Positions 29,463-61,481 of a stretch of 64,000 nt of DNA are shown here, one piece after another. The notes beneath the pieces were generated by a model. That model did no database searches and had not been told where the DNA came from. It was given only the letters and a program-made list of their open reading frames with translations. The DNA is from Candidatus Heimdallarchaeum aukensis (lineage in GTDB: Archaea > Asgardarchaeota > Heimdallarchaeia > Heimdallarchaeales > Heimdallarchaeaceae), in the NCBI GenBank assembly GCA_021513695.1, contig CP084166.1, positions 992,001 through 1,056,000 on the forward strand, in the 5' to 3' direction. How positions within the stretch are numbered: the stretch's first letter is position 1; the number at the start of each line of letters is the position of its first letter. The position numbers were made by a program, and so were the translations under genes.

Positions 29463-30686
29463 TTAAACTGGTCTACTTTTTCCAATACTTCTGTATTCAC
29501 AGTTATTGTCAAGAAGAATTGGAATCTCTCTCATTTCAGTTATACATTCATGAATTGGGTATAATTCTATAGTTGTAGTACCAAATCCTTTCTTAATTTG
29601 AATTGCATGCTCAAAATTATCAGCATTCTCTAAAGCTACCTCTAATATTGATTTATGTAATTCTCTTCCACAAATGTCACATTTAAAGTAAATTTGCTTA
29701 TTGATCTTGGTTTCTAATTGTTCTTTGTTTAATATGTTATGAGATTCGAAAAAGGTAATCAATTTATCTTTAACCTTTATTTTAGCAACAGAGATGACTT
29801 CTTCTGTTTTGAACATTTTTCTCATTTGATCACAAATTTCATGAAAAGTAGAAATCTGCTGATTTAACTGTTCTTGCGAAGAAAAAACTGAAGTAATGAC
29901 AAGGTCTTCTTCGATTTCTCTAATAAATATCCTTGAGTCACTCAAAGAAAAGACAATATAATTCAAATCAAGACTAGGTGAGTAGATCTTAACTAGTTCA
30001 GAGCGTAATCTGGAAAGATTGAGATTAACTTCTTTTTCTGGTTCAGAGTATAAAACCAAACCTTTGGAAGTTGATAGGGTTAGAAGATTTAGATTATATT
30101 CTGATACTATCTCTTGAATGTTAGAAGCTTTTGTTAGGTCTCTAGGATAAACAACAGAAAAAATTCTTTGCATTGCATCCCATATATTCTCTTCAAAGAT
30201 AGAAGTTTCATAGATTTCAGAATTGGGATACTTGCTCAACTCAAAAATATCTTTAATTGAACGTGTAATAGCAGCCCTTTTGTCAACAGGAACAACATCC
30301 ATTTTATGGGCGAAAACATAGATTCTAGCGCTAGAACCAATTTTTTTAAGATTATCCAAAGTAAGATCAAAATAATATTTAGAACGCATGATGTTAGAAG
30401 CATCAGAAATATCAACAACATAAATCAAAGCTTTAAGGTCACTAAAAGTTCTTTCAGTATATTTCTCAAAAAGCTCATTTAAATAAGAAGATTGACCTCC
30501 TACATCAACAAGATTAATAGAACTTCCTGCAAAATTGAAAAGCTTACGATTAATTCGAACTGTAGCAGGATTAAGAGAAGTTGCTTGAGGAGCAAAGCCT
30601 TCAAAAACAACTTGACGAATAGAAGTTTTACCAGATTGAGATAACCCCAGAATAACAATTTTTGATTGAAGTGAACGATCATTCAT
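29463..30686 (-). CDS. Rag/Gtr1-like GTPase with roadblock-like domain and C-terminal Cys/His cluster
   Basis: G1 ILGLSQSGKTSI, G3 LVDVGGQSSY, G4 FAHKMDVV. The middle part is LLTLSTSKGLVLYSEPE...IVFSLSDSRIFIREIEEDLVITSVF. The C-terminus carries CDICGRELHK...HEC. Its stop abuts the stop of the convergent GTPase gene (29462/29463). Confidence 0.75.
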   Translation of the reverse strand: MNDRSLQSKIVILGLSQSGKTSIRQVVFEGFAPQATSLNPATVRINRKLFNFAGSSINLVDVGGQSSYLNELFEKYTERTFSDLKALIYVVDISDASNIMRSKYYFDLTLDNLKKIGSSARIYVFAHKMDVVPVDKRAAITRSIKDIFELSKYPNSEIYETSIFEENIWDAMQRIFSVVYPRDLTKASNIQEIVSEYNLNLLTLSTSKGLVLYSEPEKEVNLNLSRLRSELVKIYSPSLDLNYIVFSLSDSRIFIREIEEDLVITSVFSSQEQLNQQISTFHEICDQMRKMFKTEEVISVAKIKVKDKLITFFESHNILNKEQLETKINKQIYFKCDICGRELHKSILEVALENADNFEHAIQIKKGFGTTTIELYPIHECITEMREIPILLDNNCEYRSIGKSRPV

Positions 30687-38624: not shown

Positions 38625-38666
38625 TTTGAATATTATTCTTTACTTTTTTCTAGCTCTAATCCTCTC
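38625..38666. repeat. 42-nt IS-leader-like repeat, copy A
   Basis: tttgaatattattctttacttttttctagctctaatcctctc is identical at 39 of 42 positions to 41084-41125, in the same orientation. Confidence 0.85.
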
Positions 38667-38901: not shown

Positions 38902-39354
38902 TTATTGTATAGAATCTATGAACCTCTTTAAATCCTCTTCTGGTAAATCAGTATATTTCTTATATCTCTTGAATTTTTTACTGAAGAATTTTATATCAAC
39001 ATAAATTTGTATTTTCTCTTTGCCTTCAATTTGTTTTCTGTCTGTTACAGGAAAAGTTGCCCAATATAACTTGTATTCTTTTGAATGCTTAAGTTCATAT
39101 TGTTGTTGTTTTGGTCTTATCTTTCCTTGATACTCAACACTATCAATTATCATTTTTATGTCCAACAGAAACATGAGTGTAGAAGCAGTTCCAGCATTAA
39201 TTATGTAAAGTCCCCATTCTTTTGCTTGTGGGTTGAATATTGGTCCAGATAAGTTTAGCGAAGCTCTTTTTGGTCTAAAGAAGGATAGGTATACTGTTAC
39301 AACTGACAGAAAAATAGATATTGTAGAGAATATTAATGAGACTACTTCTGTCAT
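38902..39354 (-). CDS. Small N-terminally membrane-anchored protein, unknown function
   Basis: The N-terminus VVSLIFSTISIFLSVVTVYLSFF is a TM helix. It is co-oriented with, and downstream of, the 447-aa gene. Confidence 0.4.
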   Translation of the reverse strand: MTEVVSLIFSTISIFLSVVTVYLSFFRPKRASLNLSGPIFNPQAKEWGLYIINAGTASTLMFLLDIKMIIDSVEYQGKIRPKQQQYELKHSKEYKLYWATFPVTDRKQIEGKEKIQIYVDIKFFSKKFKRYKKYTDLPEEDLKRFIDSIQ

Positions 39355-39589: not shown

Positions 39590-40933
39590 TTATTCCTCAT
39601 GAAGTAAAGGTGTTTCTAAAAGGACATTTGTTAAGTCGATATTGTTAGGGTTTATTTTTTTTGGATAAACAAAAGAGAAGTGGCAGACGTAAGATTTGTT
39701 GTTTCTTATTATTTTGATCCAAACATTTTCTGGTTTTTCCATTATTATTCTTAACATCCATGATGTATTTTCTTCTGATACTCTAAGCAAGGCATAAAGA
39801 GTTCTTTTTTTTAATTCTAGTGTCTTATACTTTTCGAATTTTTCTTTTAACTGTTCTGCGTTCCCCCAAAAAAGGTTGGGAAAAACTTTTTCATCTTTAT
39901 CAAATACTATTGTTATCTCTTTTATTTTATTGTACTCTGAAATATCTTTCAAGATTTCCTTCTTTTCATCAATAGGGATTCTTTGTTGAATACCTCTAGA
40001 TTTTCTTAAAATTTGATCGAGGAGAAACCATATTGAATTGTCCATATATTTAATAAACGAATTAATTTCCATTTTAAATGCAACTTCTGTTTTTTGTATT
40101 TCTACATTACCTTTTTTATTTATCCAACCGTTTATTTTAAAATAAGAAAAACGAGGATCGACATATTCGAAAGATTGTTTGGGTGGAAAGGTTTTTCCAT
40201 TTTTTCTTGCCAAAGTTATTGCATCTTCTATCCATAATTTGAAATTGGTATTTGCTGACCTTGCGGGAATTTTGTCAATAATAACCCATATCTCATCGTT
40301 ATTGAAATCCAGAACTTTTTTACCACTATGTGTAACAGTATTACGTAAGTATAGAAACACACTGAATGCAAGTGATGGATTGATATATTTATCTGAATAG
40401 GGCTCGTAATGTCTAATTAGTTCATCAAAAATACGTTCATACCTATATCGTTTTAATTCGGGAAGATTATTTAAATACGCTTCTGTGAATCTTGAAGTTA
40501 GTTCCAAAAGTTCCAGACCAGCTGAAACATATGTTTCAAAGAGACATATAAAAAGGAACTTTATAGTTGGTATTTTAGTCCAATCAAATCGTATTTGATA
40601 ATACTCTATTTGGTCTCTTACTAATTGGAAGTACGCAAGTCTATATTTAATGCTGTTTAATGTTTCAATATACCTTCCTTTTTTCACTAATTCATTAATA
40701 TGAAAAACTAGTAAACTGTAGTCTCTTGATTCGTTATGTGCTTCCAGATAGTATGAAAACATACTCAAAACGCCAAGACTTGTATCAAGAACATGCCGAG
40801 AAATACTAATTTCTTTTTTTTCTTTTTTTTCTTTTAACGAATTAAAAAACTCATATTCGTTAAGCAAAATTTTTAACAAAAGTTCATGAGATTCTTTACT
40901 TTCTATTTCTTGCTTATCCTTATTTTGATTCAT
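39590..40933 (-). CDS. Hypothetical protein with HEPN-type RNxxxH motif (Abi-like candidate)
   Basis: 447 aa and alpha-helical. FLYLRNTVTHSGKK fits the R-N-x-x-x-H catalytic motif of Abi2/AbiD-F-type HEPN RNases. No other recognisable motif was found. Confidence 0.4.
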   Translation of the reverse strand: MNQNKDKQEIESKESHELLLKILLNEYEFFNSLKEKKEKKEISISRHVLDTSLGVLSMFSYYLEAHNESRDYSLLVFHINELVKKGRYIETLNSIKYRLAYFQLVRDQIEYYQIRFDWTKIPTIKFLFICLFETYVSAGLELLELTSRFTEAYLNNLPELKRYRYERIFDELIRHYEPYSDKYINPSLAFSVFLYLRNTVTHSGKKVLDFNNDEIWVIIDKIPARSANTNFKLWIEDAITLARKNGKTFPPKQSFEYVDPRFSYFKINGWINKKGNVEIQKTEVAFKMEINSFIKYMDNSIWFLLDQILRKSRGIQQRIPIDEKKEILKDISEYNKIKEITIVFDKDEKVFPNLFWGNAEQLKEKFEKYKTLELKKRTLYALLRVSEENTSWMLRIIMEKPENVWIKIIRNNKSYVCHFSFVYPKKINPNNIDLTNVLLETPLLHEE

Positions 40934-41083: not shown

Positions 41084-41280
41084 TTTGAATATTATCCTTT
41101 ACTTTTTTCCAGCTCTAACCCTCTCCCCTCTCCCATCTTTACAATCCTTCTTTCCCCTGAAATTATTTTTTTTGTTTCCTTTTTCTATATTCTCTTTTCT
41201 TTCTAACCAACCTTATACTCTTTTTCTTTACCTTTGTTCTTGTTATTGCTTTTGTTACTGTTTTTAGTCCTAGTTCTGTA
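41084..41280. repeat. IS-leader-like repeat copy B plus about 150 nt pyrimidine-rich tract (solo left-end remnant, minus orientation)
   Basis: 41084-41125 matches copy A at 39/42 positions. Its reverse complement gagagggttagagctggaaaaaagtaaagg aligns with the IS promoter block gagggttttaaatagggaaaaaaagtaag. The adjacent CT-rich tract mirrors the purine-rich leaders of both tnpB elements. ORF 41085..41267 is low-complexity and not credible. Confidence 0.6.
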
Positions 41281-41500: not shown

Positions 41501-42637
41501 ATGATGGAAATAAACAAAATTTATCTTAAAGATTGTATAGAAGGTATGAAGGAACTTCCTGAAGATAGCATAGATTTAATATTTGCAGATCCACCATATA
41601 ATCTTCAATTGAAAAATGAATTATATCGACCTAATCAGTCATTAGTGGATGCTGTAAATGATGAATGGGATAAATTTTCATCATTTGAAGAGTACGATGA
41701 TTTTACAAAAAAGTGGTTATCAGAATGTAGGAGGGTGTTAAAAAAAACAGGTTCTATATGGGTAATAGGGTCGTATCACAATATATTTAGAATCGGAAAA
41801 ATAATGCAAGATTTAGGTTTCTGGATATTAAATGATATCATTTGGATAAAAACAAACCCTATGCCAAATTTTAGAGGTACTAGATTTAATAATGCACATG
41901 AAACTCTGATTTGGGCTTCGAAAAATGAAAAAGCTAAACCTACTTTTCATTATAAAGCTATGAAGGTATTTAATAATGATAAACAAATGCGAAGTGATTG
42001 GTATATTCCAATTTGTATAGGAAAAGAAAGGTTGAAATTAAACGGAAAAAAATTACATTCTACACAAAAACCTGAAGCATTGCTATATAGAATAATAATA
42101 TCAACATCAAATGTAAATGATATAGTGCTTGATCCTTTTATGGGTTCAGGTACTACAGCTGCAGTAGCAAAGAAACTAAGAAGGAATTTTATTGGTTTTG
42201 AAACAAATGAAATATATGTAAAAGCAGCAAGAGAGAGAGTTGTTAAAGTCATACCCATGGATCCTGACATTTTGGATTATAAAGTGGAAAAAAAACCACC
42301 AAAAGTTCCTTTTGGTACTTTAGTAGAACATAATTATATTAAAGCTGGAGATTGGCTTTATTCAAAAGATATGAGATATAAAGCAATAATAAAAGCAAAT
42401 GGGTCAATTGAATATCAAGGTAAAAACGGTTCTATTCATAAAATTAGTGCTCAAATTTTAAATAAAAAAGCAAATAATGGATGGGATTTTTGGTATGTAA
42501 AAGAAAACGATAATCTTGTATCGATTGATACTATTAGAAGAAATTATGCAAGTAAAAACATGAATTATATGAATGATGAAATAGATATGAGAAATAAAAA
42601 AGTAACAGACAAACTTTTAACTAATTACTTGGAATAA
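41501..42637 (+). CDS. Beta-class N6-adenine DNA methyltransferase, CcrM / M.HinfI family (likely GANTC)
   Basis: Motif IV IFADPPYNL precedes motif I VLDPFMGSGTTAAVA (beta-class order), and HSTQKPEALL is present. The C-terminal VPFGTLVEHNYIKAGDWLYS...NGSIEYQGKNGSIHKISAQIL...NGWDFWYV parallels the CcrM-specific C-terminal domain. Confidence 0.9.
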   Translation: MMEINKIYLKDCIEGMKELPEDSIDLIFADPPYNLQLKNELYRPNQSLVDAVNDEWDKFSSFEEYDDFTKKWLSECRRVLKKTGSIWVIGSYHNIFRIGKIMQDLGFWILNDIIWIKTNPMPNFRGTRFNNAHETLIWASKNEKAKPTFHYKAMKVFNNDKQMRSDWYIPICIGKERLKLNGKKLHSTQKPEALLYRIIISTSNVNDIVLDPFMGSGTTAAVAKKLRRNFIGFETNEIYVKAARERVVKVIPMDPDILDYKVEKKPPKVPFGTLVEHNYIKAGDWLYSKDMRYKAIIKANGSIEYQGKNGSIHKISAQILNKKANNGWDFWYVKENDNLVSIDTIRRNYASKNMNYMNDEIDMRNKKVTDKLLTNYLE

Positions 42638-42642
42638 TCTTC

Positions 42643-43512
42643 GTGCTTACTAATTATCTTCCCTATGAAGTTTTTAAAAGAATATTAACAAAGACAATCT
42701 TTCAAAATGCTAAAATAAGTTTATTAGAAAAAGTTGCTAAATATCCTTCAAGATATACAGGTTTATTTAGGCCTACCAAACCTAAATTAAAATTAATCCA
42801 GAACATTACTCAATCAAATGAAATTCTATTTGGCGATGCTTTTGAGATCATAATTAATGAATATTTGAATAGATTAGGTTTCTCTCCAATTAAAAAAAAT
42901 TATTCCTATAATGGAAATGACTTAATGTTTGATCAGATTGTAGGAAAAGAAAATACTATTATTTACATAGAACAAAAAATAAGAGATGATCATGATTCAA
43001 CAAAAAAAAGAGGTCAAATAGAAAATTTTGAGAAAAAGGGTGAATTATTATTGAAACTATATCCTGATTTCAAAATTACTGGTATAATGTATTTTATAGA
43101 CCCAAATTTAAAGAAAAATCGAAGATATTATATGCAAGAATTACAAAGAATAAGTACTCAATTTAATTTTGAAACTCATCTCTTTTATGGAAAAGAGTTT
43201 TTTGAATGGATAGGAAAAGATGAAATCTGGTTAGAAATAACAAGCTATTTATCAAAGTGGAAAGAAGAGATACCTGATTTTCCCACAATTAATTTTGATG
43301 AAAATCCCGAAGAATCTTTTGAGGAAATCAAGCATCTACAACCTAATTTACTGATAAAGCTTCTAAGAAATGATGCAATATGTAAGGAGATTTTTCCCGA
43401 ATTGTTCCCGGAAAAAACGACATTAAATCTACTTCTGGAATACTATATTCATGAAAGAGAAAAAAATAAGACTAATACAATGGTTATTGAACATTTAAAA
43501 AAAGTGTTGTGA
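42643..43512 (+). CDS. Putative type II restriction endonuclease partner (PD-(D/E)xK-like)
   Basis: It starts 5 nt after the methyltransferase stop. FDQIVGKENTIIYIEQKIRD gives a D-x13-E-x-K arrangement. The assignment rests mainly on context. Confidence 0.5.
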   Translation: MLTNYLPYEVFKRILTKTIFQNAKISLLEKVAKYPSRYTGLFRPTKPKLKLIQNITQSNEILFGDAFEIIINEYLNRLGFSPIKKNYSYNGNDLMFDQIVGKENTIIYIEQKIRDDHDSTKKRGQIENFEKKGELLLKLYPDFKITGIMYFIDPNLKKNRRYYMQELQRISTQFNFETHLFYGKEFFEWIGKDEIWLEITSYLSKWKEEIPDFPTINFDENPEESFEEIKHLQPNLLIKLLRNDAICKEIFPELFPEKTTLNLLLEYYIHEREKNKTNTMVIEHLKKVL

Positions 43513-44322
43513 AAAAAAATCTAAAATCACAAAAAAGATCTATATAATTGTACGATTTTTTGTTCAAAAAAAAACTATCACCGTTTGATTGACATGTTAT
43601 AAAAATAGTTTCTGAAGAAAAACCTTTACATCCATTAACTCTCAGATGCTTTATACCATTATTTTGAAATAGATACTACATGCTTGAATTAAAATGAATT
43701 TCTGGACTAGTTGATTTTCCTTTCTTAATTATAAATTATATAATTTTCCTAATTGAATTGAGAGATAATTTTTCTTTTTCAAACCAAGCATGATCTATTA
43801 TAGGAGGTTTTAAACGGAGAAGATTCAAACTTTGGATATATATTCTACATATATTATAAATATTGTTTGATATTCATCATTTGAGTTTCTCAATAAAAGA
43901 TTATTCCATATTTTAGTTTCTAGTTTGAAGATTATGAATTATTTAATAAATGTCTTAAATTCGGGATACCTTTCTTTCATATTTTCCTCAGAATCATGTA
44001 ATGGAATTTGTAGTGTTCCTTTTACTAATATTCTATATTCCTCAAGTTTAAGAATATGATTTGATTATAGCAGTGTGCCATTACTTGTTATGTTTGTTGT
44101 TATTTTTTTCGATAAATGTAGAGATTCTGGTAAAGAAATAATGTTTTCAGTTATGAATTGTATATTATCATGAAATCTAACCTTCTTAATTTAACTCAAA
44201 TTAATTAAGTAGTAAAGATAATAAAAGAAGGTATCTAAATGTTTATTGCGGAGATTTATTATAGGGTTTTTAATTTTCATCTCCCACATCGAATAATACG
44301 CATTTATCAATAAATCCTTATA

Positions 44323-45342
44323 TTAATTAGAGCAATATGAAGTTTTATTTGTGAAAATTTCAGGATCATCTAGTTCTCTCAATCTTTTAAGTGTAACACT
44401 TTTCCATTTATCATAAAAATCAACTAAAATACCTTCTTTTTCCTTTAATGTTGGTTTTCCTGTATCATCATCCATAATAAATTCAAATCCGTAATCAATC
44501 TTAAAATTAAATTGATCTGTATGCAAAACTCTTTCATGAGGAAACTTAATATCGTTATCCAAAGATGAACAAAAATTATAATGTCGAACTTCAATATGAA
44601 TTGATGAGTTTGAATATAAACCAAGCCAGTCCATTATATTTTTCTTTGTTGATTGAGGATTATATCTATTTGCTTTCGGTGTTGTAGTACAAATAATAAA
44701 ATTGCCATTTCTTATATTCTCCTTTTCAAATTGTTTTACTAACCAATTTAATGTTTTATAGTGTCGCTTATTATTAACTAAATTTACACCAAGATATCTG
44801 TCCACAATCATTACTTCCTTTGCAAATCTGAATATCTTTTTGATAAATCTTGAATGCACTTCTGTTAAATTATTTAATTCTGCTAAGTTTAATGATGTAT
44901 TCTGTATTTTATTGTAGAAATCTATTTCTGTAATTAATTCCTCTGATACATAGCTACTACTCAATTTTCCAATTTCACACTTATTTCTACAATTATTGTA
45001 AGGAAGTATTATCCAATCTGGATTTTCTCTGCTTTGAATTTCACAATAAGCTATACATTCATCTTTTTTTTTCTTTCCTTCAATTTTAATTTCAATTATT
45101 CTTCTATTATTTTGCATATTCGAAAGCATTTCTTCTATGATGAGTCTTTCTTCTATTGGTATAAGTGAAAGGGTTTTTGATTTAATAGGTAAACTAAAAC
45201 CTTCTGGTTTTAGAAGTATACCGTTTTTTCTAAGGGAAATCAATAAAGAAACTAATATTTTAGAACGATACATAATAAGCGTAGAATTTTCAGAATTGTC
45301 ATCTAAAATTTTAGGAGATAATACAAATGTCTGTACCGTCAT
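44323..45342 (-). CDS. Hypothetical protein, fourth gene of the four-gene operon
   Basis: A 339-aa uninterrupted ORF. Its ATG overlaps the ATPase stop (ATGA at 45339-45342). No confident motif was found. Confidence 0.5.
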   Translation of the reverse strand: MTVQTFVLSPKILDDNSENSTLIMYRSKILVSLLISLRKNGILLKPEGFSLPIKSKTLSLIPIEERLIIEEMLSNMQNNRRIIEIKIEGKKKKDECIAYCEIQSRENPDWIILPYNNCRNKCEIGKLSSSYVSEELITEIDFYNKIQNTSLNLAELNNLTEVHSRFIKKIFRFAKEVMIVDRYLGVNLVNNKRHYKTLNWLVKQFEKENIRNGNFIICTTTPKANRYNPQSTKKNIMDWLGLYSNSSIHIEVRHYNFCSSLDNDIKFPHERVLHTDQFNFKIDYGFEFIMDDDTGKPTLKEKEGILVDFYDKWKSVTLKRLRELDDPEIFTNKTSYCSN

Positions 45343-47249
45343 TCAAATAGCTCCTTATAACTTAGATCAAAGAAATCATCTGGCCATTCATTTATAAAAT
45401 TACCATGTTTGTCAAATTCGATAGGAACTATATTAGCTCCTAGTTTTGTTTTTTCAACAAATATAATTGATATAAGTTTTGGACTTATTTTCTTTTTCCT
45501 AATGAGTTTTTTGATTCGTAGAATTAATTGTTGACTATGAGTTTCAATTATAAATTGTTTTGATAAATTCCTTTTAACATGTTCAACAAAAAATTCTCCC
45601 AATTCAGCTTGCAATCTTGGATTAAGATGTATCTCTGGTTGTTCTATTAAAAGAATTTCATTTGGTTTATTTGACATTATCGTTTGTACAAGAATGGGGA
45701 GAACCTGACTCACACCAAATCCAATATCCGGTAATGCCACCGGATATTTTGTGATATTATCTTCGAATTTCAAGGAATATACCCCTGATAGTTTGTCTTT
45801 ATCTGCTGTATATGAGACTGTGTAACCGATTTTTAGTTTTTTCAACCAATTATTTAGTTCATTTATTTTATTTTTATATGAATAGATAAAATCTGCTGTT
45901 TTTGATCCTGAAACACCTACATTAATAGGTCTACTCCCTCCAAATATGTAATATCGAGATGGTTTATCTCTAAGAGGACCAATAAAAGTAATGCTCTTCA
46001 TCAATTCAATGAATTGATTTCTATTCTCTTCAGTCACGTCATAATCAAAATATAAATTCTTTTTTCCATGTTCAAGTTTAAAAAACGTGTTGATTTTAAG
46101 TAATTCACCTTTAATTGGATTACCAACAAATTCAATAGATAAATTATGATGAATAAACTTAATTAATTTGTTAATTAGATCTGTTTCTATCTCCGATGGG
46201 TCTTTAAACATAATAATTCTAAATAATTTCTCAATTTTCATATTAATTGATTCTTCAATTAGAATCCTAAAATCATGATCGATTAAAATATCATCTTTTA
46301 TTTCATTTAAACCAATTTCAACCTTTTTGCAAATTTTTTCAATTATTTTATCTTTTTTTAACAGAAAAAATTTGTTTTTTTCTAATTCTCTTCTAATTTT
46401 TTCTACTATATTTTTAATTTCAATTTTTTTCGCTTGACTATTTTCCTGATAAATTTTCAATATAGTTTCTATAGGAACTTTAATATTAATCGTAGGAATT
46501 TTATCGTTATCAAAATGAATCTTCTTTTCAATTTTTTCTTCTATATCAAAGACATCAATTTTAAATTTCTCTTCATATGCAGAATAAGAGATTATAAATG
46601 GTGTATCAATGTTTTCAACAATTGTGATTTTCTTGTATCCTCCAGATATTGACTCTCTCAAAAACGGTAAAAGAATCATCGGTATAACTCTTTCTGTACT
46701 TATTTTTGAAAGAGAACAAGTATATTTTATCCGCTGATAAATCCTAGAATTTTCTGTTTTGCAATATACTAATTTTGCTGAAATTAATGATTTTTCAATC
46801 TTTTTGCCATAATTTCTAGATATTCCCCATATTATTTTATCTAAAAGAATGTAAGGTCTCTCTTCAATCTTTTTTGAAATGTATGTTAAGTTGATTTTGA
46901 ATTTTTTAAAAATCCTTTCCTTGTATGGTGAAATATGAAGATAATCTGAGGATCGCCACTGTAACCCAATTTCAACTCTTTTTCTAGTATCATGACCAAA
47001 AACAATTTCTTCGAAAGGTCCAATATCAACATAAGTCCCTTGATGTAGAAGAACATTATTTGGGTCATTGTCTTCTATAGTTTGTTTTAAGGCTAAAAGT
47101 GATTTCAAAATAGATGATTTTCCACTACTATTTTCTCCAAATATCAGTGTAATCGGTTTACATGGTATTCTAGAGCCCTTTTTTCCAAAGGCTTTAAAAT
47201 TTCTTAAATAAATTTCAGTTAACATGAACAAACACCAAGTTTCTTTCAT
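45339..47249 (-). CDS. ABC/SMC-like AAA ATPase (AAA_15/AAA_21-type, as in OLD/Septu/PARIS-class defence ATPases)
   Basis: The N-terminus is LTEIYLRNFKAFG...ITLIFGENSSGKSSILKSL (Walker A). About 400 aa of helical insert follow, then LLIEQPEIHLNPRLQ (Walker B / D-loop) and IIETHSQQL (H-loop). The probable start is ATG at 47225 (MLTEIY). Confidence 0.8.
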   Translation of the reverse strand: MKETWCLFMLTEIYLRNFKAFGKKGSRIPCKPITLIFGENSSGKSSILKSLLALKQTIEDNDPNNVLLHQGTYVDIGPFEEIVFGHDTRKRVEIGLQWRSSDYLHISPYKERIFKKFKINLTYISKKIEERPYILLDKIIWGISRNYGKKIEKSLISAKLVYCKTENSRIYQRIKYTCSLSKISTERVIPMILLPFLRESISGGYKKITIVENIDTPFIISYSAYEEKFKIDVFDIEEKIEKKIHFDNDKIPTINIKVPIETILKIYQENSQAKKIEIKNIVEKIRRELEKNKFFLLKKDKIIEKICKKVEIGLNEIKDDILIDHDFRILIEESINMKIEKLFRIIMFKDPSEIETDLINKLIKFIHHNLSIEFVGNPIKGELLKINTFFKLEHGKKNLYFDYDVTEENRNQFIELMKSITFIGPLRDKPSRYYIFGGSRPINVGVSGSKTADFIYSYKNKINELNNWLKKLKIGYTVSYTADKDKLSGVYSLKFEDNITKYPVALPDIGFGVSQVLPILVQTIMSNKPNEILLIEQPEIHLNPRLQAELGEFFVEHVKRNLSKQFIIETHSQQLILRIKKLIRKKKISPKLISIIFVEKTKLGANIVPIEFDKHGNFINEWPDDFFDLSYKELFE

Positions 47250-47317
47250 TCACACTCTTGATGAATTCTTTACAAATTTATGTAATAAAAATAAAAACTT
47301 TTCTGGAATATCTATGT

Positions 47318-50300
47318 TTAATTTTCACTAAGATATTTTATTATTTTAGGAAGTAGGAAAACATTTTTTCTTAATGTTGAAAAACTTAATGCTTCTCCTA
47401 GAAGTGTGTGAACTTGTTTAGGTATTTTTCCAAACATTGGATGACTAACTACATATCCATAGGTAAATGATTTGAAATTCCCACTTTCTATTATTACACG
47501 CATTGGCTCTTCCAACAAGCTCATATCACCAAAGTAAATGCTTGATAATGGTGATGATAATGCTCTTAAACGTTCAATAGTTGCTTTTTCAATATCTTCA
47601 CTCAAAAAAATATCACTATCTTCTATTATATCAAGAGTTATTAATAAATATGAATCACCAGCAAATATAATTGGTGGACTTAAAAGTTTACTAAATTTTT
47701 TTGCTAATGAAAATGCATTATTTGTTGAGTTGATAAAATGATATAAGCTTGGATATTTTCTACTTTTTTCATCTTTTTTTACATTTCTTCCATAATAAGT
47801 TCTGACCATCTTTTCTAAGTAGTTTAATCCTTTATTTATTGTGTATAAGTTTCGAGGTTTTTCCAGATAATTAAGTATTTCTTGTTTATCTGTTTTGTCA
47901 TAAGCTTTTACTGTTACACGAAAACCTTTTGCTATTTGTTGATTAGTGACTTTATAGAATAGATAAGAAGGTATCGTCATATCATTCCATCTACCTGCTT
48001 CATTAAATGTAAGTATAAATTCAGGAGAGGGATATAATCTGAAATGGTTTAATGCTGTTTTTATAGATGGAAAATAATTTTTCAAAAAATCATCTAAATA
48101 GATATTATCAACTGAAAATGCTCTTTTACTAACTCTTCCAAATAGACTGAATTTTCTTTTAGTTCTTTCCGAAATCTTGCTTCTGCTAAAAACTGGTAGG
48201 ACATGTTCATTATTGTTGATTAGTATATCTCTAATAAAACTTCTTAACTGATGAAATTTGATATTTTGATCTTTTAGAGTGGCATTTTTGTTCAAAGCAG
48301 AAATCATAGACACTAATCTTGGCTTCAAATCTGTTTCTTCTCCTCTCATCCTTTTAATTACTTGCCTAAAATATTCTAGATTGATCATAGAATCGAAATA
48401 AGTTGTTGAGCCATAGTCTGTTTTTAAGGGGAAAGGAGGAAGGATAATTAAAATTTCATGCCATGAATATGTAGTTCCAAATGCTAATGAAGAGGTTCCT
48501 ACTATATTTTTTTTAGGTGTTTCTTCTATTAATAATGTGTCACGAGAATCGTGAGTAATAGAAACTGCATCATAATTGTTTAAATGGAGGTATTCTACTA
48601 ATGAATCTACAAACTGTTTATTGTTAACATAAAAAATTACTTTACCCTCTTGTAAATATTTTTCAAATGATTTTTTTCTATTGTCAATTCGTGATTTTTT
48701 TACAAGCTTGTCTAATATTTCAAAAATTTTTTTAAAATTTATTTCCTCTTCATATTTACCCTCACAAATAAATGATGCTGCACAATAATCAATATTGAAA
48801 TTTAAGAGATATCTCAGAAAAATACCTTTAATCGGAGTATTAATTATTTTAAATTCCTCTGGTTCTTGAATGTCTTCATTAAAATTAGTTATTTGAAATT
48901 GTGTCATCCATTTTTTTGAATTTGGATCAACTAATGTGTTCAACATGGAAATTACTAATTTCATACTTGTGATAGATGCATCAGTAATTACAAAGCGAGG
49001 AACATTTATGTTATTATTTACCATTAATCGATTCCTTGCTTCTATTAGTAAATCAATAAAATTTTTTGCAACTGTTGGTCCAGAATTAGTTAATTCATCA
49101 AAGATGAACATATATGTCTTTGTGAATAGTAATTTCCAATTGTATGATTGTTTTAGAAAATAATCTAAAGCTTGGGAAGATACTAATATAACTTTTTGTC
49201 CTTGTTTCTCTAGTGCTTTTTTCAATCGATTTCCTGTTTCACTGAAAATTGTTTCATACCCCTTAAGTGTTATTGGATCTCTTATTAACTCTTTTTCTCT
49301 TTTACCAATAATTAATTCTAAATGGACATTTTTTTCTATATCATTTTTGATTAATCTTTGAATTTTATCTTTAGTTTGTATTAAGGTTGTAATTCTTGGA
49401 CAGAAATACAGAATAGTAAAGTTTTTTTTAGTTTTTGCAAGCTTTTTAATATAATTTGCAATCACATAATTTTTTCCAACACCTTGAGATGAACCATTTA
49501 TTATTATATTATAACAATCATTGGTTAATAATTTTAGGAAGTTCTTCTCATGTTCTTTTCTTACATTTTCTATTTCGTTTCTAGTAACACTCTGTCTTTT
49601 TACGATAGAAGGTTGAATCTTCTCTTTAGTTTCAGGATAAGCTTCAATAAATTCTGTTTTTTCATCCTTCAAAATTATTTTTAACTCCTCTCCTCTAGTT
49701 CCTTCAAAAAAATACATTCTTTTATTGTTTTTTTCTTTTATTCTCATCGATATTTTTCCACTCATAAATAATTCAAAAATTCGTCTTCTTTCAAAATCTT
49801 CCAATATATATTCTTTCTTTTTACCAAATTCTGTTTCCACTATAGTACTAGGAATCAAGTTACATAGAAATCGTAATATTTTCCTTAAATCGGTTTCAGA
49901 TTTAATATGAAAAGAAGATATAGCTCCAGGTAAAACTATTTGAACTTCAATCTCACTGTTATAATTTTGAGTTTCGTTATAATATAATTGTGCATAGGAG
50001 AATACTTTTAAGTATTTCTGGAGAGCTGTTGCAATTCTGTAAAAATCTCTTGCAGGAATCTTTTTGTTCTTATGTAAATTTAGTTTTCTTAGTTTTTCCT
50101 TTGAAAAATCTTCGACAATTAATTGTTCAATATAATCTTGAAGTAATCGCTCTTTCGTCATATTTACAAAAAATATATATGATTTAATATCGCCAATACA
50201 TAAGAACTCGATTTGGTTCATTTCATAATTAAAGGCTTCCTCTTGATTGTTAGATGTTTTCTTTCTAATGATTATAAAATCAGGTTTTTTTTCCCTAAAT

Positions 50301-50779
50301 GTTGGTTCTATAAATATTTCTAATTCTGTATCTGGTTTTTTCCATTCAAGATTTGCATTTAGTAATACCGATATTGAACATTGAAATCCTGTTTTTATCA
50401 TTCTTAAGGCTGTATATCCCACTTTTTGTTCTTCCAAAATATCTGTGATTTCTCTTTCATCAATCTTTAAGTCTGTTCTAAACATTTGCCTTTTTTGAAA
50501 ATAATTTTTAAATATTAAGTACGAATCTGTGATGCTTGATTTTCTGATAAATAAATCGATTGCTTGTTCTATCTGTATTCCAATTACATTTTCAAGATAT
50601 GAATTCAACTCTATTCTATTTTCAATATCTAAAATAGGTGGTTCAATTCTTATGCCTACAAAAGGTTTAATGTTGTAGCATTTTGATTTTGACGCAATTC
50701 CAAGAAAGAATCCAAATTCAAGTGCTTCTCCATATATTAATGGTGCTATTCTATTAATTTTCTTTTCGTAATTTACCAT
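47318..50779 (-). CDS. Large (1153 aa) nuclease-helicase-like protein
   Basis: N-terminal PD-(D/E)xK-like pattern EIFIEP...KPDFIIIRKK...EFLCIGDIKSY. P-loop IINGSSQGVGKNYV (about nt 49469-49498). Walker B/DExx-like MFIFDELT, then VITDAS, GTSSLAFGTTY and FRQVIKRMRG (motif VI-like). The motifs are degenerate. Confidence 0.5.
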   Translation of the reverse strand: MVNYEKKINRIAPLIYGEALEFGFFLGIASKSKCYNIKPFVGIRIEPPILDIENRIELNSYLENVIGIQIEQAIDLFIRKSSITDSYLIFKNYFQKRQMFRTDLKIDEREITDILEEQKVGYTALRMIKTGFQCSISVLLNANLEWKKPDTELEIFIEPTFREKKPDFIIIRKKTSNNQEEAFNYEMNQIEFLCIGDIKSYIFFVNMTKERLLQDYIEQLIVEDFSKEKLRKLNLHKNKKIPARDFYRIATALQKYLKVFSYAQLYYNETQNYNSEIEVQIVLPGAISSFHIKSETDLRKILRFLCNLIPSTIVETEFGKKKEYILEDFERRRIFELFMSGKISMRIKEKNNKRMYFFEGTRGEELKIILKDEKTEFIEAYPETKEKIQPSIVKRQSVTRNEIENVRKEHEKNFLKLLTNDCYNIIINGSSQGVGKNYVIANYIKKLAKTKKNFTILYFCPRITTLIQTKDKIQRLIKNDIEKNVHLELIIGKREKELIRDPITLKGYETIFSETGNRLKKALEKQGQKVILVSSQALDYFLKQSYNWKLLFTKTYMFIFDELTNSGPTVAKNFIDLLIEARNRLMVNNNINVPRFVITDASITSMKLVISMLNTLVDPNSKKWMTQFQITNFNEDIQEPEEFKIINTPIKGIFLRYLLNFNIDYCAASFICEGKYEEEINFKKIFEILDKLVKKSRIDNRKKSFEKYLQEGKVIFYVNNKQFVDSLVEYLHLNNYDAVSITHDSRDTLLIEETPKKNIVGTSSLAFGTTYSWHEILIILPPFPLKTDYGSTTYFDSMINLEYFRQVIKRMRGEETDLKPRLVSMISALNKNATLKDQNIKFHQLRSFIRDILINNNEHVLPVFSRSKISERTKRKFSLFGRVSKRAFSVDNIYLDDFLKNYFPSIKTALNHFRLYPSPEFILTFNEAGRWNDMTIPSYLFYKVTNQQIAKGFRVTVKAYDKTDKQEILNYLEKPRNLYTINKGLNYLEKMVRTYYGRNVKKDEKSRKYPSLYHFINSTNNAFSLAKKFSKLLSPPIIFAGDSYLLITLDIIEDSDIFLSEDIEKATIERLRALSSPLSSIYFGDMSLLEEPMRVIIESGNFKSFTYGYVVSHPMFGKIPKQVHTLLGEALSFSTLRKNVFLLPKIIKYLSEN

Positions 50780-50780
50780 T

Positions 50781-53702
50781 TTATATCAACTTCTCCTGAA
50801 TTTTTATTCTGTTTATCCCTTTGATGAAAATACTTGGATCTAGCAACTTTTTGGAATCAGGATATGGTAGATGAAATAACCTTTTTAAACTTTCAATACT
50901 AATTCCGCCTTTTTCATCTCCGTAAATGGTTAATATTCTTGAGAATTCTTTCAAATAAGAAATAGTTTCTTCAGACGATCTTTCATATGGTATTACAGTA
51001 AAAATAAGAGACGGTTGTAAATCTTTTTTAATTTCACCCTCAAGCTTTTCTTCTCTTCTCGAACCAAAAATCAACATTCCAACTATTTTTCTCTTATCTC
51101 TTCCATTATATTTCAAAGGTTCATTAATATATATAATTAATTGTCTATTTGATTTTGACTTTGGCAGTAATTTTCCAATTTCTCTTGAAGGAGTAAAAAT
51201 AGCTTTTTCATTAAAAACAAACAATGGAATTTTTAATTGTTTATTCTTTTCAAATATCCAGTCAATAATGGTATCTTCTTTACTAAGATCACTATCTTGT
51301 ATTTTTCTATTTACAGATTCAGATATAATGTCATAAGTGCTCTCCGTTCTTGAACTATGTTTAGCTCTTATTAAAATTAGAATATCTTCTTTTGCTAATT
51401 CTGATACTATTAGTGAGGCTAATTCAAAATTTATATCGCATCCTATGTTTCCAAATGAATCTTCTATAAAGTTTTCCTCCATTACATTAATTTCTCGTTC
51501 ATCAGTTAGGTGAGCATAAGCTGCGATATTTCTTATGTATCTTTGTTCTTCTTTAATTATTTCGACCCATTTTTCTGATGAAAGAGAAAGTAATAATATA
51601 TCTTTTGTTTTTATTAATTTATCAAGAGCTTTATCATGTAGAGTATATCCCGCTGTAGAAGTATTTTTTAAGGAGTGTGAAGTAAAATACCATTCATCCA
51701 TAAATAATCTTCCAAAAGCTTTATTTATATTATGATAATTTGATAAAAACTTGTACAAATAGATACCAGGTAAAGCAATTTTTTTCTCTTTGGAAGCTGT
51801 TTGATAAGTAAATAATTCTACTTTACCTATGTTATCAAAAGTATAAAATGAAAAAGGTCCATCGAAGTATTTTAAGATTTGATTTTTTGACCATACTACA
51901 TTCCCGTTTTTTCTAATACCATCTTTTGTCATCATTTGAACATTAATACGTCTTCTTGACCTATTGATTGTACTTTTATTTTGCCAGATTTTCTTTATTA
52001 TTTGCCTAATCTCTTTTTCTTTATATTCTTTTGATAAAGAATCAAAAGAAAAGCCTTGAGAATATTCGAAATATTTTGTTTCCCATGAGTGTACTCCTTT
52101 TAATAACATATAATAAAATTCATGAAAAAGACTTCTTTTTACTTTCTTCGATAAATATGGGATAAACCAAATGTTATCTCCTCCTTTTACAAATCTAAAT
52201 TCATGATTAAGCCTTGTTAAAGATTGTTTAATATCAGGGTCATTAATTAGGTATAGTATTGCACTATCTATAACTGCCTTTAAAGATGCAAAAAATCTAT
52301 AATTGTCGTTGTTTAGTCTTTCTCTCAAATCTGTATTAATTCTTTTGTGATATATTTCAATTTCTTCTGGAAAAAATTCAGTATTTGCTATAAGATAAGT
52401 GATAAATTCTTGTAATCCATATTCTTTATCTCCATACCAGATAGATGTTTTATTTTTTTCATCAATTCCTTCATTCTTTTTTAAATAAATATTTTCATGA
52501 ATAAAAACTATCAATCTTTTTGGATTTATTTGTTTGGGAGAGATGTTTATCTTTTGAATTCTTTCTAATTTCTCTTTTTTTGCGCATAAGTAATGATCAA
52601 ATTCTGGAAATTCACAATTTTCAACAATTTCCTTTAGTTTATCAAATAATTCTTCAAAATCTTTATAACTTATTTCGTTAAAACCTAAAAGTATTGAAAA
52701 AGCGAATAATTTATCTTTAATATCTTCAACCATTTCTAAGAATTCTTGGTCATTTGTATCCATTTGTTCCATTATCCATTCTTGAAGGTTAATGAGTAAA
52801 GGCAAGATTGTTTTTTCTTTATTCCAGCCTTCTCCATATATTCTGAAACAATAAAGGTTTTTATCATAATCTTCATGAAGATTAAGAAATTTTGGGCAGC
52901 TTCCTACAGAGATTAATCCAGGAAAAGAAGGAAATGACATACCTTTGAAACTATGATTTATTATTTTCTCAAACAGAGTTTTCTCTTCAGCTGATAATTT
53001 TTTAATAAATTTATCATTCTTAAGTAAGACGGTACATTCTTTCTTAAAATCTAAATATCTGTCGTATGCAGCATTACGAACTTCTTCATTTCTAATGTAT
53101 TTTATATAATATTTTACTAATTTTTTCTGAACTGGATTATTAATAATGTTTGAAAATTGCTCTGTAGCTTTAATGGAAACTTCTTCTGCTTTTAAAGCTG
53201 TTTTAAAAAATGAAATTGGAATCTCATTTTCATGAATTTTCTCATTTGCGTTTCTAAATCTTGATTCATTTTCTTGAATTTCAATATAAGAAAAAGTAGA
53301 ACCAACTTCTTCTGATTTCCATTCATCTCGCTTTGCTTTATCCCATAATGTTGCTGGATTTTCATACTTTTTTTCTTTTTTCATTAACTCTTCTTTAATT
53401 GTGATTATAACTTTGTCGCTTATCTCTAATAATGTAGTATTAGGACTTTGGACAATTCTAGATTTTAGCTTTTTCACCAGTAACCAATTTTGTAACGAGG
53501 GATCAGATATTTCATTAATTTCTTCTAATGTATTTTGATACGCTTTGTGAACTATTCTACAAAAATCATCAAAGGGATATGTTATAGTACAAAGCATATC
53601 AAAGAATTTTTTATCCTGAATATATTCTGAAATTAATTTTGAGAAGAATATAGACCAAAATTCTTTATCTATTCCTTCTGTTAGTTTTACTAATCTAGCC
53701 AC
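50781..53702 (-). CDS. Large (973 aa) hypothetical protein, first gene of the four-gene operon
   Basis: Uninterrupted ORF with a GTG start preceded by gaggaga. Its stop is separated by 1 nt from the next gene's ATG. No recognisable catalytic motif was found. Confidence 0.5.
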   Translation of the reverse strand: MARLVKLTEGIDKEFWSIFFSKLISEYIQDKKFFDMLCTITYPFDDFCRIVHKAYQNTLEEINEISDPSLQNWLLVKKLKSRIVQSPNTTLLEISDKVIITIKEELMKKEKKYENPATLWDKAKRDEWKSEEVGSTFSYIEIQENESRFRNANEKIHENEIPISFFKTALKAEEVSIKATEQFSNIINNPVQKKLVKYYIKYIRNEEVRNAAYDRYLDFKKECTVLLKNDKFIKKLSAEEKTLFEKIINHSFKGMSFPSFPGLISVGSCPKFLNLHEDYDKNLYCFRIYGEGWNKEKTILPLLINLQEWIMEQMDTNDQEFLEMVEDIKDKLFAFSILLGFNEISYKDFEELFDKLKEIVENCEFPEFDHYLCAKKEKLERIQKINISPKQINPKRLIVFIHENIYLKKNEGIDEKNKTSIWYGDKEYGLQEFITYLIANTEFFPEEIEIYHKRINTDLRERLNNDNYRFFASLKAVIDSAILYLINDPDIKQSLTRLNHEFRFVKGGDNIWFIPYLSKKVKRSLFHEFYYMLLKGVHSWETKYFEYSQGFSFDSLSKEYKEKEIRQIIKKIWQNKSTINRSRRRINVQMMTKDGIRKNGNVVWSKNQILKYFDGPFSFYTFDNIGKVELFTYQTASKEKKIALPGIYLYKFLSNYHNINKAFGRLFMDEWYFTSHSLKNTSTAGYTLHDKALDKLIKTKDILLLSLSSEKWVEIIKEEQRYIRNIAAYAHLTDEREINVMEENFIEDSFGNIGCDINFELASLIVSELAKEDILILIRAKHSSRTESTYDIISESVNRKIQDSDLSKEDTIIDWIFEKNKQLKIPLFVFNEKAIFTPSREIGKLLPKSKSNRQLIIYINEPLKYNGRDKRKIVGMLIFGSRREEKLEGEIKKDLQPSLIFTVIPYERSSEETISYLKEFSRILTIYGDEKGGISIESLKRLFHLPYPDSKKLLDPSIFIKGINRIKIQEKLI

Positions 53703-54374
53703 AAACTTCTCTCCTCATAGGTAATTGTACTAAAACTTATCTTGAATGTTAAACAATTTCTTTTTTTATTTATATAATTTTTGATAATAAATGTTTTCAT
53801 CTTTTATTCATTTATTATCTGTATTCAATAAATTATTCATGAGTTTAGTTTTATCTTTTTAATATTAATCAAAAATATGCTATATGTTTAACTTTGACGA
53901 CTTAGAGTAATCTCAAATTGTTGTTATAGTAGTTAGATTTATTTTTTATTTATATTCACCCACTAAAGTTTTATTTAACTCGCTTCAACTCTTTAAATTA
54001 AATATGTCTAGTTGATAGATACATTTTCATCCTCCTATACGCTTGAAAATACTAGATGATTCTCTAGTTTAAATTATATGGTTAATGTAAGAAGATATAC
54101 AAGTTTAAATGCCATAAAACGGAGACGTTGGCCATGAAACAAAAATAAATAGAATACTGTTGTTTTCTAAGTGCAAAGAAAAATATATAGAAGTATAAAA
54201 TACAAAAATTAGTGTAAGAGAAAAATAAGAAACTCAACAAGAATTTACAAAAAGTAGTTTAGCATAAAAAATAAGAAAGTATTTTATTATGGTGCAATTG
54301 CTAAGACATGACAAAATAATATGGTTGTTTGGTGATTTAATTAGAAAAATTTAATAACCAAAGTAATTAAAAAA

Positions 54375-59680: not shown

Positions 59681-60247
59681 TTACCACTGATTAATCACTT
59701 TCTCAGCAAAACCTAATAATTTGTCTACTTTAACCTCTGTTCCATCATCTAAAATGACTTTTCCAGTAAAATATCCAAAAACTTGATGTTGAACTGATTT
59801 AAAAATCAGCAAGTTTACTTTTGAATTTCTGTCTATAATGGGTTCGAAATCCATTTCAAATCTTCCATCATTGCTTGTGAATTTCCAAGGTTTCAAGTAA
59901 TCAGATTCATCTATGTGAAAAGTAATCTGATCAAGTTTGTGTCCTTTGTTATTGTAATAGAAAATGTTCTCTGTTGCTGCAGAAGTGTCACCAAAACCAT
60001 ATCCTATATTAAAACCTACAGAAACACCATCTTGTATTCCTGAAGCTGAACCCCAGTACCAGATGTCTTTATAAGGCCAAACTCCCCTTCCCCAATCCAA
60101 TACCGCAAAACTATTCTCTTTTTTAAAGCTATACTCTTTATTACCATATTTTACTGTCCCTTCAGTAGGCATACAGTTAATTTTTTGATTATAGTAGAAG
60201 CATTTAGGTTTATTTTTCCAAGGAGTGGCGATAACCATTGTATCCAT
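59681..60247 (-). pseudogene. Truncated paralogue (C-terminal 188 codons) of the neighbouring 343-aa gene
   Basis: MDTMVIATPWKNKPKCFYYNQKINCMPTEG... aligns residue for residue with the last 188 aa of ORF 60450..61481, with scattered substitutions. Similarity stops exactly at the Met codon. Confidence 0.6.
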
Positions 60248-60449: not shown

Positions 60450-61481
60450 TTACCATCGATTCATCACTTTCTCAGCAAATCCTAATAGTTTGTTTATTTT
60501 TACCTCTTTTCCATTGTCTAAGATTACTTTTCCTGTAAAATAACCAAAAACTTGGTGTTGTACTGATTTGAATATGAGAAGATTTACTTTTGAATTTCGA
60601 TCAATTATTGGCTCAAAATCCATTTCAAACCGTTCATCGTTACTAGTGAATTTCCAAGGCTTAAGGTAATCTGTTTCATCTATATGAAAAGTAACTTGAT
60701 CGAGTTTGTGTCCTTGATTATTGTAATAGAAAATATTTTCTGTAGCTGCAGAAGTATCACCAAACCCATAACCTATATTGAAGCCTACAGGAACCCCATC
60801 TTGTATTCCTGAAGCTGACCCCCAATACCAAACATCTTGGTATGGCCAAACTCCTCTACCCCAATCAAGAACTGCAAAACTGTTGTTTTTCTCAAAAATG
60901 TATTCTTTATCGCCATATTTTACTTTTCCTTCTGTAGGCATACAATTTATTTTCTGATTATAATAGAAACATTTAGGCTTATTTTTCCACGGAGTGGCAA
61001 TTACCATAGTATCCATATTTGGTTCTTGATGAAGTAAAAGTTCTCCTTTGATATCTGATTTTTTAGTAAAATTGGGAAAATTAAATCTAATTATCCTTTG
61101 TTCATTCTTCTTTTCTATATTTATACTCAGTTTTTTGCCTTTATACTTAATATCACCAAAATCAGAAGAAAGAGGTAAGTTTGTTCTACCTCTTGTGAAT
61201 AACTTCATTTCTTCTCCTGTAACAAAAGTTTTTTTCTTAAAATCTAACCAGACTATATTATATAATCCCATTATCCCTAAATCAGCTATAGTAAAGGTGA
61301 TCGCATAATCTGGATGAATAACAGCATAATAATCCCATTCTTTTATTCTGAACCATTTTTTCCTAATTTTTTCTCTATTGTATTTTAAATAAGGTTTCCT
61401 TGACCAACCTTTGTAGTTCAAGTGGCCTTTTTCATTTAGTAATTCTCCTTCTGAAATTATCTCATTTTGAGTAGACATCAC
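60450..61481 (-). CDS. Conserved hypothetical beta-rich protein (possibly DUF2804-like)
   Basis: A 343-aa uninterrupted ORF. The family guess rests on size and W/Y/G-rich beta-strand character only. Confidence 0.45.
   Translation of the reverse strand: MMSTQNEIISEGELLNEKGHLNYKGWSRKPYLKYNREKIRKKWFRIKEWDYYAVIHPDYAITFTIADLGIMGLYNIVWLDFKKKTFVTGEEMKLFTRGRTNLPLSSDFGDIKYKGKKLSINIEKKNEQRIIRFNFPNFTKKSDIKGELLLHQEPNMDTMVIATPWKNKPKCFYYNQKINCMPTEGKVKYGDKEYIFEKNNSFAVLDWGRGVWPYQDVWYWGSASGIQDGVPVGFNIGYGFGDTSAATENIFYYNNQGHKLDQVTFHIDETDYLKPWKFTSNDERFEMDFEPIIDRNSKVNLLIFKSVQHQVFGYFTGKVILDNGKEVKINKLLGFAEKVMNRW

Follow-up and report, generated by a model that had tools for sequence, protein, structure and literature searches.

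Menshen is a defence system of three genes, NsnA-NsnB-NsnC (Millman et al. 2022; dissected in PMC12065111), and its definition requires NsnA, a ParB-DUF262 plus ParBDB protein encoded immediately upstream of NsnB (PMC12065111). In the literature approximately 28% of Menshen loci adjoin restriction-modification (RM) or BREX systems, and the published Menshen survey lists bacterial phyla only. HEC-03 is a two-gene arrangement of an ABC ATPase and a PIN protein, found embedded in Hma systems, both genes of which are needed against phage (Payne et al., bioRxiv 10.1101/2024.01.29.577857). Here these systems are compared with a block of four intact, co-oriented minus-strand open reading frames (ORFs), genes 1 to 4, at positions 44323-53702 (∼9.4 kb) of the window, a stretch of 64,000 nucleotides (nt) from the closed, 3.08-Mb genome of the Asgard archaeon Candidatus Heimdallarchaeum aukensis (contig CP084166.1, positions 992,001 to 1,056,000). 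The initial annotation, made from the sequence of the window, had treated the block as one four-gene system. The comparisons described below make it reasonably probable that the block combines two gene pairs, each translationally coupled and separable from the other, namely genes 1 and 2 (pair A) and genes 3 and 4 (pair B), lying head-to-tail in a variable, defence-rich island.

The four genes are not a conserved unit. Pair A occurs without genes 3 and 4 in a 23-kb metagenomic locus, L001, and pair B occurs without genes 1 and 2 in 16 other loci; with these loci taken into account, the four-gene order is, so far, unique to the H. aukensis genome. The same synteny, which the initial annotation proposed should be sought elsewhere, was not found outside H. 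aukensis, two of the relevant contigs being incomplete (L002 breaks off within gene 2, and L003 opens within gene 3). Similarly, the suggestion of an ATPase sensor acting with a helicase-nuclease effector is not supported, as the conserved partner of the gene 3 ATPase is gene 4 and not gene 2. By contrast, the four ORFs with their 1-nt, 68-nt and 4-nt ATGA junctions were confirmed, coordinates included, and every motif quoted initially for genes 2 and 3 is present in the translations. The ORFs are genuine genes rather than chance reading frames, because each has same-length homologues, at 44-61% identity, on other contigs. The junction of genes 1 and 2 is TAA-a-ATG, with 1 nt between the codons, and genes 3 and 4 share the ATGA overlap. 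The gap between genes 2 and 3 is 68 nt from the annotated start of gene 3 and 92 nt from the second ATG (M9, position 47225). This second ATG is probably the true start, because the Pfam AAA_15 match opens at residue 9 and because residue 1 of the N-terminally complete homologues (L008, L010, L017, L018 and L022) aligns to residue 9. The spacer holds a T5-A-T5 run and TATA-like AT-rich boxes, as read from its sequence, and could contain a terminator and a promoter.

Gene 3 had been placed among the AAA_15/21 ATPases, an assignment borne out by Pfam (AAA_15, 53.9 bits; AAA_21, 66.4 bits) and sharpened by PADLOC, which returned NsnB (E 1.7e-58), HEC-03B (1.9e-52) and PDC-M55A (9.3e-51). The match to AriA was at 2.4e-22, and AriA, GajA and PtuA all score far below NsnB. 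The protein carries a long insert and, at its C-terminus, a DUF3696 helix (25.8 bits, above the Pfam cut-off of 22), and is matched over its full length by phrog_21420 (5e-52). It carries Glu in place of Asp in Walker B, GxG in place of SGG in the signature, and Arg in the Q-loop (GPLRD, residues 424-428), which are the motif variants of NsnB (PMC12065111), while the second residue of Walker B is Gln versus the Asn of that report. On its profile matches and motifs, gene 3 is an NsnB-type ABC ATPase among the AAA_15/21 ATPases.

Gene 4 alone has no match in Pfam, PADLOC (E<=1), NCBIfam or PHROGs, and Pfam searches with each half were also blank. A HMMER search of 1.84 billion representatives, with a profile of gene 4 and one close homologue, retrieved 31 proteins, nearly all of 310-370 amino acids (aa), that align end to end. 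In an alignment of 27 sequences Asp181 (in DRYIGR), Gly185 and Trp200 are invariant, as are His269, Arg271, Thr275, Gln277 and Gly285 (PHxRYLxTDQ....RGFDLL), and the N-terminal half contains no invariant acidic residue. When family members were scanned individually, PADLOC NsnC matched 7 of the 27, Pfam MIT_C 4 and BrxL 1; the C-terminus of BrxL has likewise been assigned to MIT_C (PMC12065111). The AlphaFold model, built with the family alignment as input, is confident (pLDDT 83.5, pTM 0.84). The best Foldseek matches to this model in the PDB are the MIT_C domain of MITD1 (4a5z and 2ymb; probability 1.0, target TM 0.68), with the PLD3 and PLD4 exonucleases, members of the phospholipase D (PLD) group, ranking next, and its N-terminal domain matches PIN folds. 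Judged by family and model, gene 4 is of the NsnC architecture of Menshen, a link visible only through family and structure, and it is the conserved partner of gene 3 and likely its effector. The initial annotation found no recognizable motif in either gene 1 or gene 4; for gene 1 this stands, as it matches nothing, but gene 4 resolves, via its family and the model, into a PIN-like domain followed by an MIT_C/PLD-like domain. In the PIN-like domain (44878-45342) Cys96 and Cys118 are nearly invariant across the 27-member family and Cys122 is often present, which suggests a possible metal site.

Of the 16 further loci with gene-4-like genes, 5 come from metagenome assemblies and 11 from GTDB species genomes. 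Each of the 16 has a gene-3-like ATPase ORF directly upstream, the stop and start codons usually overlapping, and none contains a relative of gene 1 or gene 2. No DUF262 protein was found ahead of the pair in any of the 13 loci that show the upstream side. In H. aukensis, similarly, the window contains no DGxQR motif in any reading frame, and DUF262 gave no Pfam match in genes 1 and 2 (E<=1) or in the ORFs scanned between 23 and 64 kb (E<=0.001). The NsnA-less pair is, as far as these sequences show, a stable form and not a one-off loss, because it is held in every locus where the upstream side can be seen (13 of 16). The sole ORF in the related loci with a DGxQR motif (DGKQR, residue 168; L022:8057-9004, plus strand) sits downstream of the cassette and has no QRxxxW motif.

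The genes that precede pair B in other genomes are frequently those of other immune systems. In several Nostoc loci and in a Desulfobacteraceae metagenome-assembled genome (among L012-L015, L020, L021 and L022) the pair is directly downstream of hsdR-hsdM-hsdS, with a gap of 10 nt to the cassette in L022 and an hsdS gene upstream in L021; the hsd genes were identified by Pfam in L012, L021 and L022, and by shared gene order in the remaining Nostoc loci. In L010 and L019 the pair lies among RAMP (type III CRISPR) genes, accompanied in L010 by Cmr2, Cmr3, Cas1 and Cas2. An RtcR-like CARF/sigma-54 regulator is located ∼0.9 kb upstream in L017, and a divergent TIR gene upstream in L008. This recurrent embedding beside RM and CRISPR genes may bear on what triggers pair B. 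A different arrangement was observed on two plasmids, Azotobacter pAcX50e (L006) and one from Aeromonas (L007), where a DUF3696 ATPase is encoded with a 177-aa hypothetical protein and a member of the RNA-ligase family, NsnA once more being absent; ahead of the ATPase, L006 has a 165-aa fragment with a DEAD/DEAH helicase annotation. Viral contigs searched with gene 3 or gene 4 singly yielded nothing of use, and a marginal partial match to these queries (L005) was discarded.

Pair A has far fewer relatives. Residues 412-563 of gene 2 match Pfam ResIII (E 1.7e-6), and a complete set of superfamily-2 (SF2) motifs can be read along the protein: I (NGSSQGVGKN), Ia (FCPRI), II (FDELT), III (DASITS), V (GTSSLAFGTTYSW) and VI (FRQVIKRMRG). 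A pattern search found the strings CIGD[IV]KSY, NGSxQG[IV]GKN, FFCPRI/YFCPRI and FDEL[TS]NSGP in all four pair A loci and motifs V and VI in all three whose sequence extends that far, while the strict PD string and DASITS were matched in fewer loci. Upstream of the motor, Glu154/Glu158, Pro166-Asp167 and Asp197-x-Lys199 are invariant in three aligned homologues, a PD-(D/E)xK pattern whose fold finds no profile or PDB match. The initial description of gene 2 as nuclease-helicase-like is consistent with these data because of the conserved motifs and the ResIII match. No significant match to gene 2 was obtained in PADLOC, NCBIfam or the PDB sequences (the last searched with the protein alone and as a profile), and PADLOC returned zero families at E<=1 for genes 1 and 2, including those of Hachiman, DISARM, Druantia, Zorya, BREX, Dpd, Mokosh and Hma. 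The possibility that gene 2 is a divergent type I R subunit was dropped as an assignment, since hhalign against an HsdR alignment gave a probability of 1.8%, over motifs I/Ia only. The Walker A of gene 2 (residues 428-437; 49469-49498) reads GxGKN and not GK(T/S) in the window, L001, L002 and L004; being conserved, the variant is not a sign of decay, though it might alter the handling of Mg-ATP.

For gene 1, searches of Pfam, PADLOC, NCBIfam, PHROGs and the PDB sequences, whether with the protein alone or with a profile, produced nothing significant. The protein contains no P-loop and, according to Pfam, no methylase domain; hhalign against HsdM gave a probability of 0.4%, and against gene 2 nothing. 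Its AlphaFold model, from a 4-sequence alignment, is of low confidence (pLDDT 38.9).

A word-indexed search of 5.8 billion proteins yielded three homologues of gene 1 and two of gene 2, and a third gene 2 homologue was located on the L004 contig (SRR30758808). These occupy only three metagenomic contigs, L001, L002 (ERZ23498673, scaffold_7316) and L004, and are always adjacent, each gene 1 homologue (44-60% identity) being followed directly by a gene 2 homologue. The stop/start junctions elsewhere are TAAATG, ATGA and TAATG, so that coupling is seen in all four loci when the window is included. Two of the contigs have a GC content of 0.43-0.45 and one of 0.29, indicating at least two genomic backgrounds. 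L001 is rich in defence genes (MkoA-like, DrmC-like and BrxH/Cas3-like); there, gene 2 is followed by the convergent DrmC-like PLD gene. Next to pair A, L002 carries a gene with a DNA polymerase B exonuclease domain and another with a PDDEXK_1 domain. No further copies were found in GTDB species genomes or JGI metagenome contigs, both weak negatives in that the known copies in the H. aukensis genome and L001, evidently absent from those collections or masked, were also missed, nor in viral contigs or plasmid records, nor in phage records, for which gene 2 was the only query.

Taken together, pair B is best described, from its sequences and the gene 4 model, as a PLD-armed, NsnA-less variant between Menshen and HEC-03. 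Pair A is most likely an independent and very rare module with a restriction-like or helicase-nuclease role in defence, to judge from its motifs and neighbours. The initial view of the block as an anti-mobile-element system is thereby upheld for genes 3 and 4, with genes 1 and 2 remaining unplaced; conversely, the statement that it fits no named system applies to genes 1 and 2, genes 3 and 4 being partly Menshen- or HEC-03-like. Several observations weigh against two separable pairs. The closest relatives, L002 and L003 (JGI 3300033148, Ga0366832_1010546), at GC 0.29 and ∼60% identity, could share the four-gene order, and the separability of pair A rests on one informative locus, L001. The gap of 68-92 nt between genes 2 and 3 permits co-transcription or read-through, and at a genomic GC content of 27-30% chance alone is expected to produce T5-A-T5 and TATA-like runs. 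In addition, the defence role of pair A and its nuclease fold are deductions, the fold from a motif alone, and the GKN Walker A might alter the ATPase activity of gene 2.

The alternative that fares best, although we consider it unlikely, is one integrated four-gene system in which genes 1 and 2 would replace NsnA as a DNA-sensing front end, in the form of a translocating complex of nuclease and helicase, and signal to the NsnB-like ATPase, leading to release of the PLD effector. NsnB-NsnC would then be a plug-in back end for NsnA, type I restriction enzymes, type III CRISPR complexes and genes 1 and 2. The co-orientation of the four genes across so short a gap is as such a system would have it, as is the position of pair A, which is that of the third, sensor gene of Menshen. 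Bacterial cassettes also follow hsdS or RAMP genes on the same strand, some at gaps of 10-95 nt (L022, L010 and L019), and the incomplete L002 and L003 are compatible with the same order. However, pair A stands without genes 3 and 4 in L001, pair B is on its own in L008, behind a divergent gene, HEC-03-type two-gene cassettes function alone in E. coli, and no sequence signal ties gene 3 to gene 1 or gene 2. It is likewise doubtful that genes 1 and 2 are an undescribed nuclease-helicase immune system, present on four contigs, that also serves as front end for a portable NsnB-NsnC back end. Were the pairs coupled in this way, the four genes might be a counterpart of Menshen equipped with a sensor of a new type, or a guard that fires upon inhibition of the front end, proposals to which we give little weight.

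A further explanation would assign pair A, as a module of a helicase-nuclease and an accessory protein, to the replication, recombination or repair of an unrecognized mobile element, with pair B an unrelated neighbour. The DNA polymerase B exonuclease-domain and PDDEXK_1 genes beside pair A in L002 are consistent with such a module, as are flanks that differ in every locus, GC backgrounds of 0.29 and 0.43-0.45, and the lack of a match between pair A and any defence model. The explanation is nevertheless improbable: within the window the block has no integrase, transposase, replication initiator or terminal repeats at its flanks, searches of viral contigs, plasmid records and (gene 2 only) phage records were blank, and defence genes abound in both contexts whose flanks are annotated, the window and L001. 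That the block is a decaying remnant, a degenerate Menshen after loss of nsnA and/or a set of inactive genes, is very improbable, for although NsnA is absent and the Walker A of gene 2 is the non-canonical GKN, the four ORFs are intact and full length relative to homologues, catalytic-type residues are invariant across each family, GKN is kept in all four loci, and the NsnA-less layout recurs wherever the upstream side is visible.

With two separable pairs as the preferred reading, a mechanism for pair B can be proposed by analogy with the published Menshen, Septu and PARIS models, which include an AlphaFold 3 prediction of NsnB4-NsnC2 and solved Septu and PARIS complexes. The ATPase would oligomerize and clamp the inactive PIN-like domain of the effector between its DUF3696 tails. 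A trigger, perhaps an inhibitor of the neighbouring system, as the placement of the cassette in other genomes may suggest, would change ATP binding or hydrolysis, whereupon the PLD-like domain (Asp181, His269 and Arg271) would be released or activated and cut nucleic acid. Pair A, from its motifs and neighbourhood only, would comprise an ATP-driven SF2 translocase with an N-terminal PD-(D/E)xK nuclease, for which gene 1, the large partner, may supply target recognition. Pair B probably lies behind pair A for the reason that its bacterial relatives lie behind type I restriction or type III CRISPR genes, such cassettes accumulating beside, or embedding in, immune operons. The positions of the genes, domains and motifs are collected in Table 1.

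Table 1. Positions in the window of the four genes and of the features recognized within and between them.
Feature	Position	Strand	Description
Gene 1	50781..53702	-	973 aa, GTG start, K9W45_04270; fold unassigned; conserved partner of gene 2
Gene 2	47318..50779	-	1153 aa; putative PD-(D/E)xK nuclease fused to divergent superfamily-2 helicase/translocase
Gene 2 nuclease motif region	50132..50332	-	Residues 150-216: E154/E158, P166-D167, D197-x-K199
Gene 2 SF2 helicase core	48320..49546	-	Residues 412-820
Gene 2/gene 3 spacer	47226..47317	-	92 nt from M9 start, 68 nt from first ATG
Gene 3	45339..47249	-	636 aa, 628 aa from M9; NsnB-type ABC ATPase, by sequence
Gene 3 Walker A	47112-47138	-	Read from translation
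Gene 3 GxG signature (GFGVSQ)	45705-45722	-	Residues 510-515
Gene 3 Walker B (LLIEQPE)	45633-45653	-	Residues 533-539
Gene 3 H-loop	45534-45545	-	Read from translation
Gene 3 DUF3696	45345-45488	-	Pfam match
Gene 4	44323..45342	-	339 aa; predicted NsnC-type effector (sequence family and model)
Gene 4 PIN-like domain	∼44878-45342	-	N-terminal; no conserved acidic catalytic set
Gene 4 MIT_C/phospholipase-D-like domain	∼44338-44865	-	C-terminal; invariant D181, H269-x-R271

The setting of the locus is a variable, defence-rich island. The AT-richer region noted initially beside RM and HEPN genes is apparent in the GC content, which is 0.25-0.27 over 42-54 kb versus 0.28-0.35 in most of the remaining window. 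A type II methylase (N6_N4_Mtase plus RAMA) and endonuclease pair at 41501-43512 is convergent with gene 4, and genes for a HEPN protein, a PDC-M19A-like protein and a PIN protein, together with a TnpB-like gene, are located near the block. No direct or inverted repeats bounding the block were found, and Rfam gave no match over 43-55 kb. The block is flanked by unusually long AT-rich segments without an ORF of >=80 aa (43513-44322, 810 nt; 53703-54374, 672 nt), in which there is no Rfam match, tRNA gene or bounding repeat. Two ORFs directly upstream of the type II methylase (38902-39354 and 39590-40933), neither with a family match, are enclosed by a 42-nt direct repeat whose copies (38625-38666 and 41084-41125) are 93% identical; the repeat could delimit an inserted segment or a regulatory region that was duplicated.

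Elsewhere in the window, a 1535-aa ORF (23335-27942, plus strand) has no Pfam or PADLOC match at E<=0.001, and the 490-aa ORF that follows it (27990-29462), scanned with PADLOC only, has no match there. A GTPase of the Gtr1/RagA family, one of the eukaryote-like signature proteins of Asgard archaea, adjoins a TnpB/Cas12f-like gene (29463-30686 and 31345-32802, both minus strand), and these genes mark the left side of the variable region. On the other side of the block a full-length DUF2804 gene is followed by an ORF matching only the C-terminal half of the family (profile positions 154-339), which by this match is a tandem partial duplicate or a truncated copy; the two lie at 59681-60247 and 60450-61481 on the minus strand.

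These data have a bearing on several questions. Menshen-type ATPase/effector cassettes would extend to Asgard archaea, beyond the bacterial phyla of the published survey. A stable NsnA-less cassette behind type I restriction or type III CRISPR genes bears on how such cassettes are triggered. Pair A offers a very rare candidate, a coupled nuclease-helicase and 973-aa protein without detectable relatives beyond their own family, in defence-rich neighbourhoods and two unrelated genomic backgrounds. With respect to method, tight co-oriented spacing in a defence island does not by itself establish a multi-gene system. Of the two halves of the locus, pair B is of a kind already described (Menshen/HEC-03-type), here in a host lineage new for it and in an NsnA-less, PLD-armed form, and pair A is an orphan without an assignable family.

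In the comparison with Menshen, pair B shows three features tested for and lacks NsnA, which is absent here and in all the gene-4-family relatives examined. Gene 3 is NsnB-type in its DUF3696 tail and motif variants. Gene 4 lies directly downstream with overlapping stop and start codons and has the inactive PIN-like and PB-PLD1/MIT_C-like domains of NsnC, which shares with gene 4 the D...H-x-R site (D/E ... HDR in the description of NsnC) and 2YMB as top structural match. The locus, like many Menshen loci, adjoins an RM pair. However, gene 3 exceeds the PADLOC NsnB profile by ∼200-250 aa, the organism is an Asgard archaeon, and the upstream position is taken by an unrelated nuclease-helicase pair. 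HEC-03 resembles pair B in having two genes and no separate sensor, in its ATPase model, which matches gene 3 at E 1.9e-52, in its PIN-like partner, and in that relatives occur inside, or attached to, other defence operons. In contrast, the HEC-03 partner model matches neither gene 4 (E<=1) nor any of 27 family members (E<=0.01), the PIN-like fold being all that the partners have in common, and the PIN-like domain of gene 4 lacks a conserved acidic set and is joined to an additional PLD-like domain, the likely active part.

More distantly, Septu (PtuAB), PARIS (AriAB), Gabija (GajA) and PrrC/RloC share with pair B the principle of an ABC ATPase oligomer that restrains a nuclease until it is triggered, and PrrC is embedded in a type I restriction locus. 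They differ in that the effector here would be PLD-like and not an HNH, Toprim or anticodon nuclease, and in the C-terminal tail and inserts of gene 3, whose scores against these families are far below that against NsnB. For pair A, gene 2 matches no PADLOC helicase family, which sets it apart from Hachiman, DISARM and Cas3, and type I RM differs in that the hhalign probabilities are 1.8% for gene 2 with HsdR and 0.4% for gene 1 with HsdM and that pair A has no methylase or specificity subunit. The similarity is one of layout and context: gene 2, like HsdR, runs from an N-terminal PD-(D/E)xK motif through an SF2 motor to a long C-terminal region, and, in common with HsdR, Hachiman HamAB, DISARM DrmA and Cas3, it is encoded with a large partner in defence-rich neighbourhoods.

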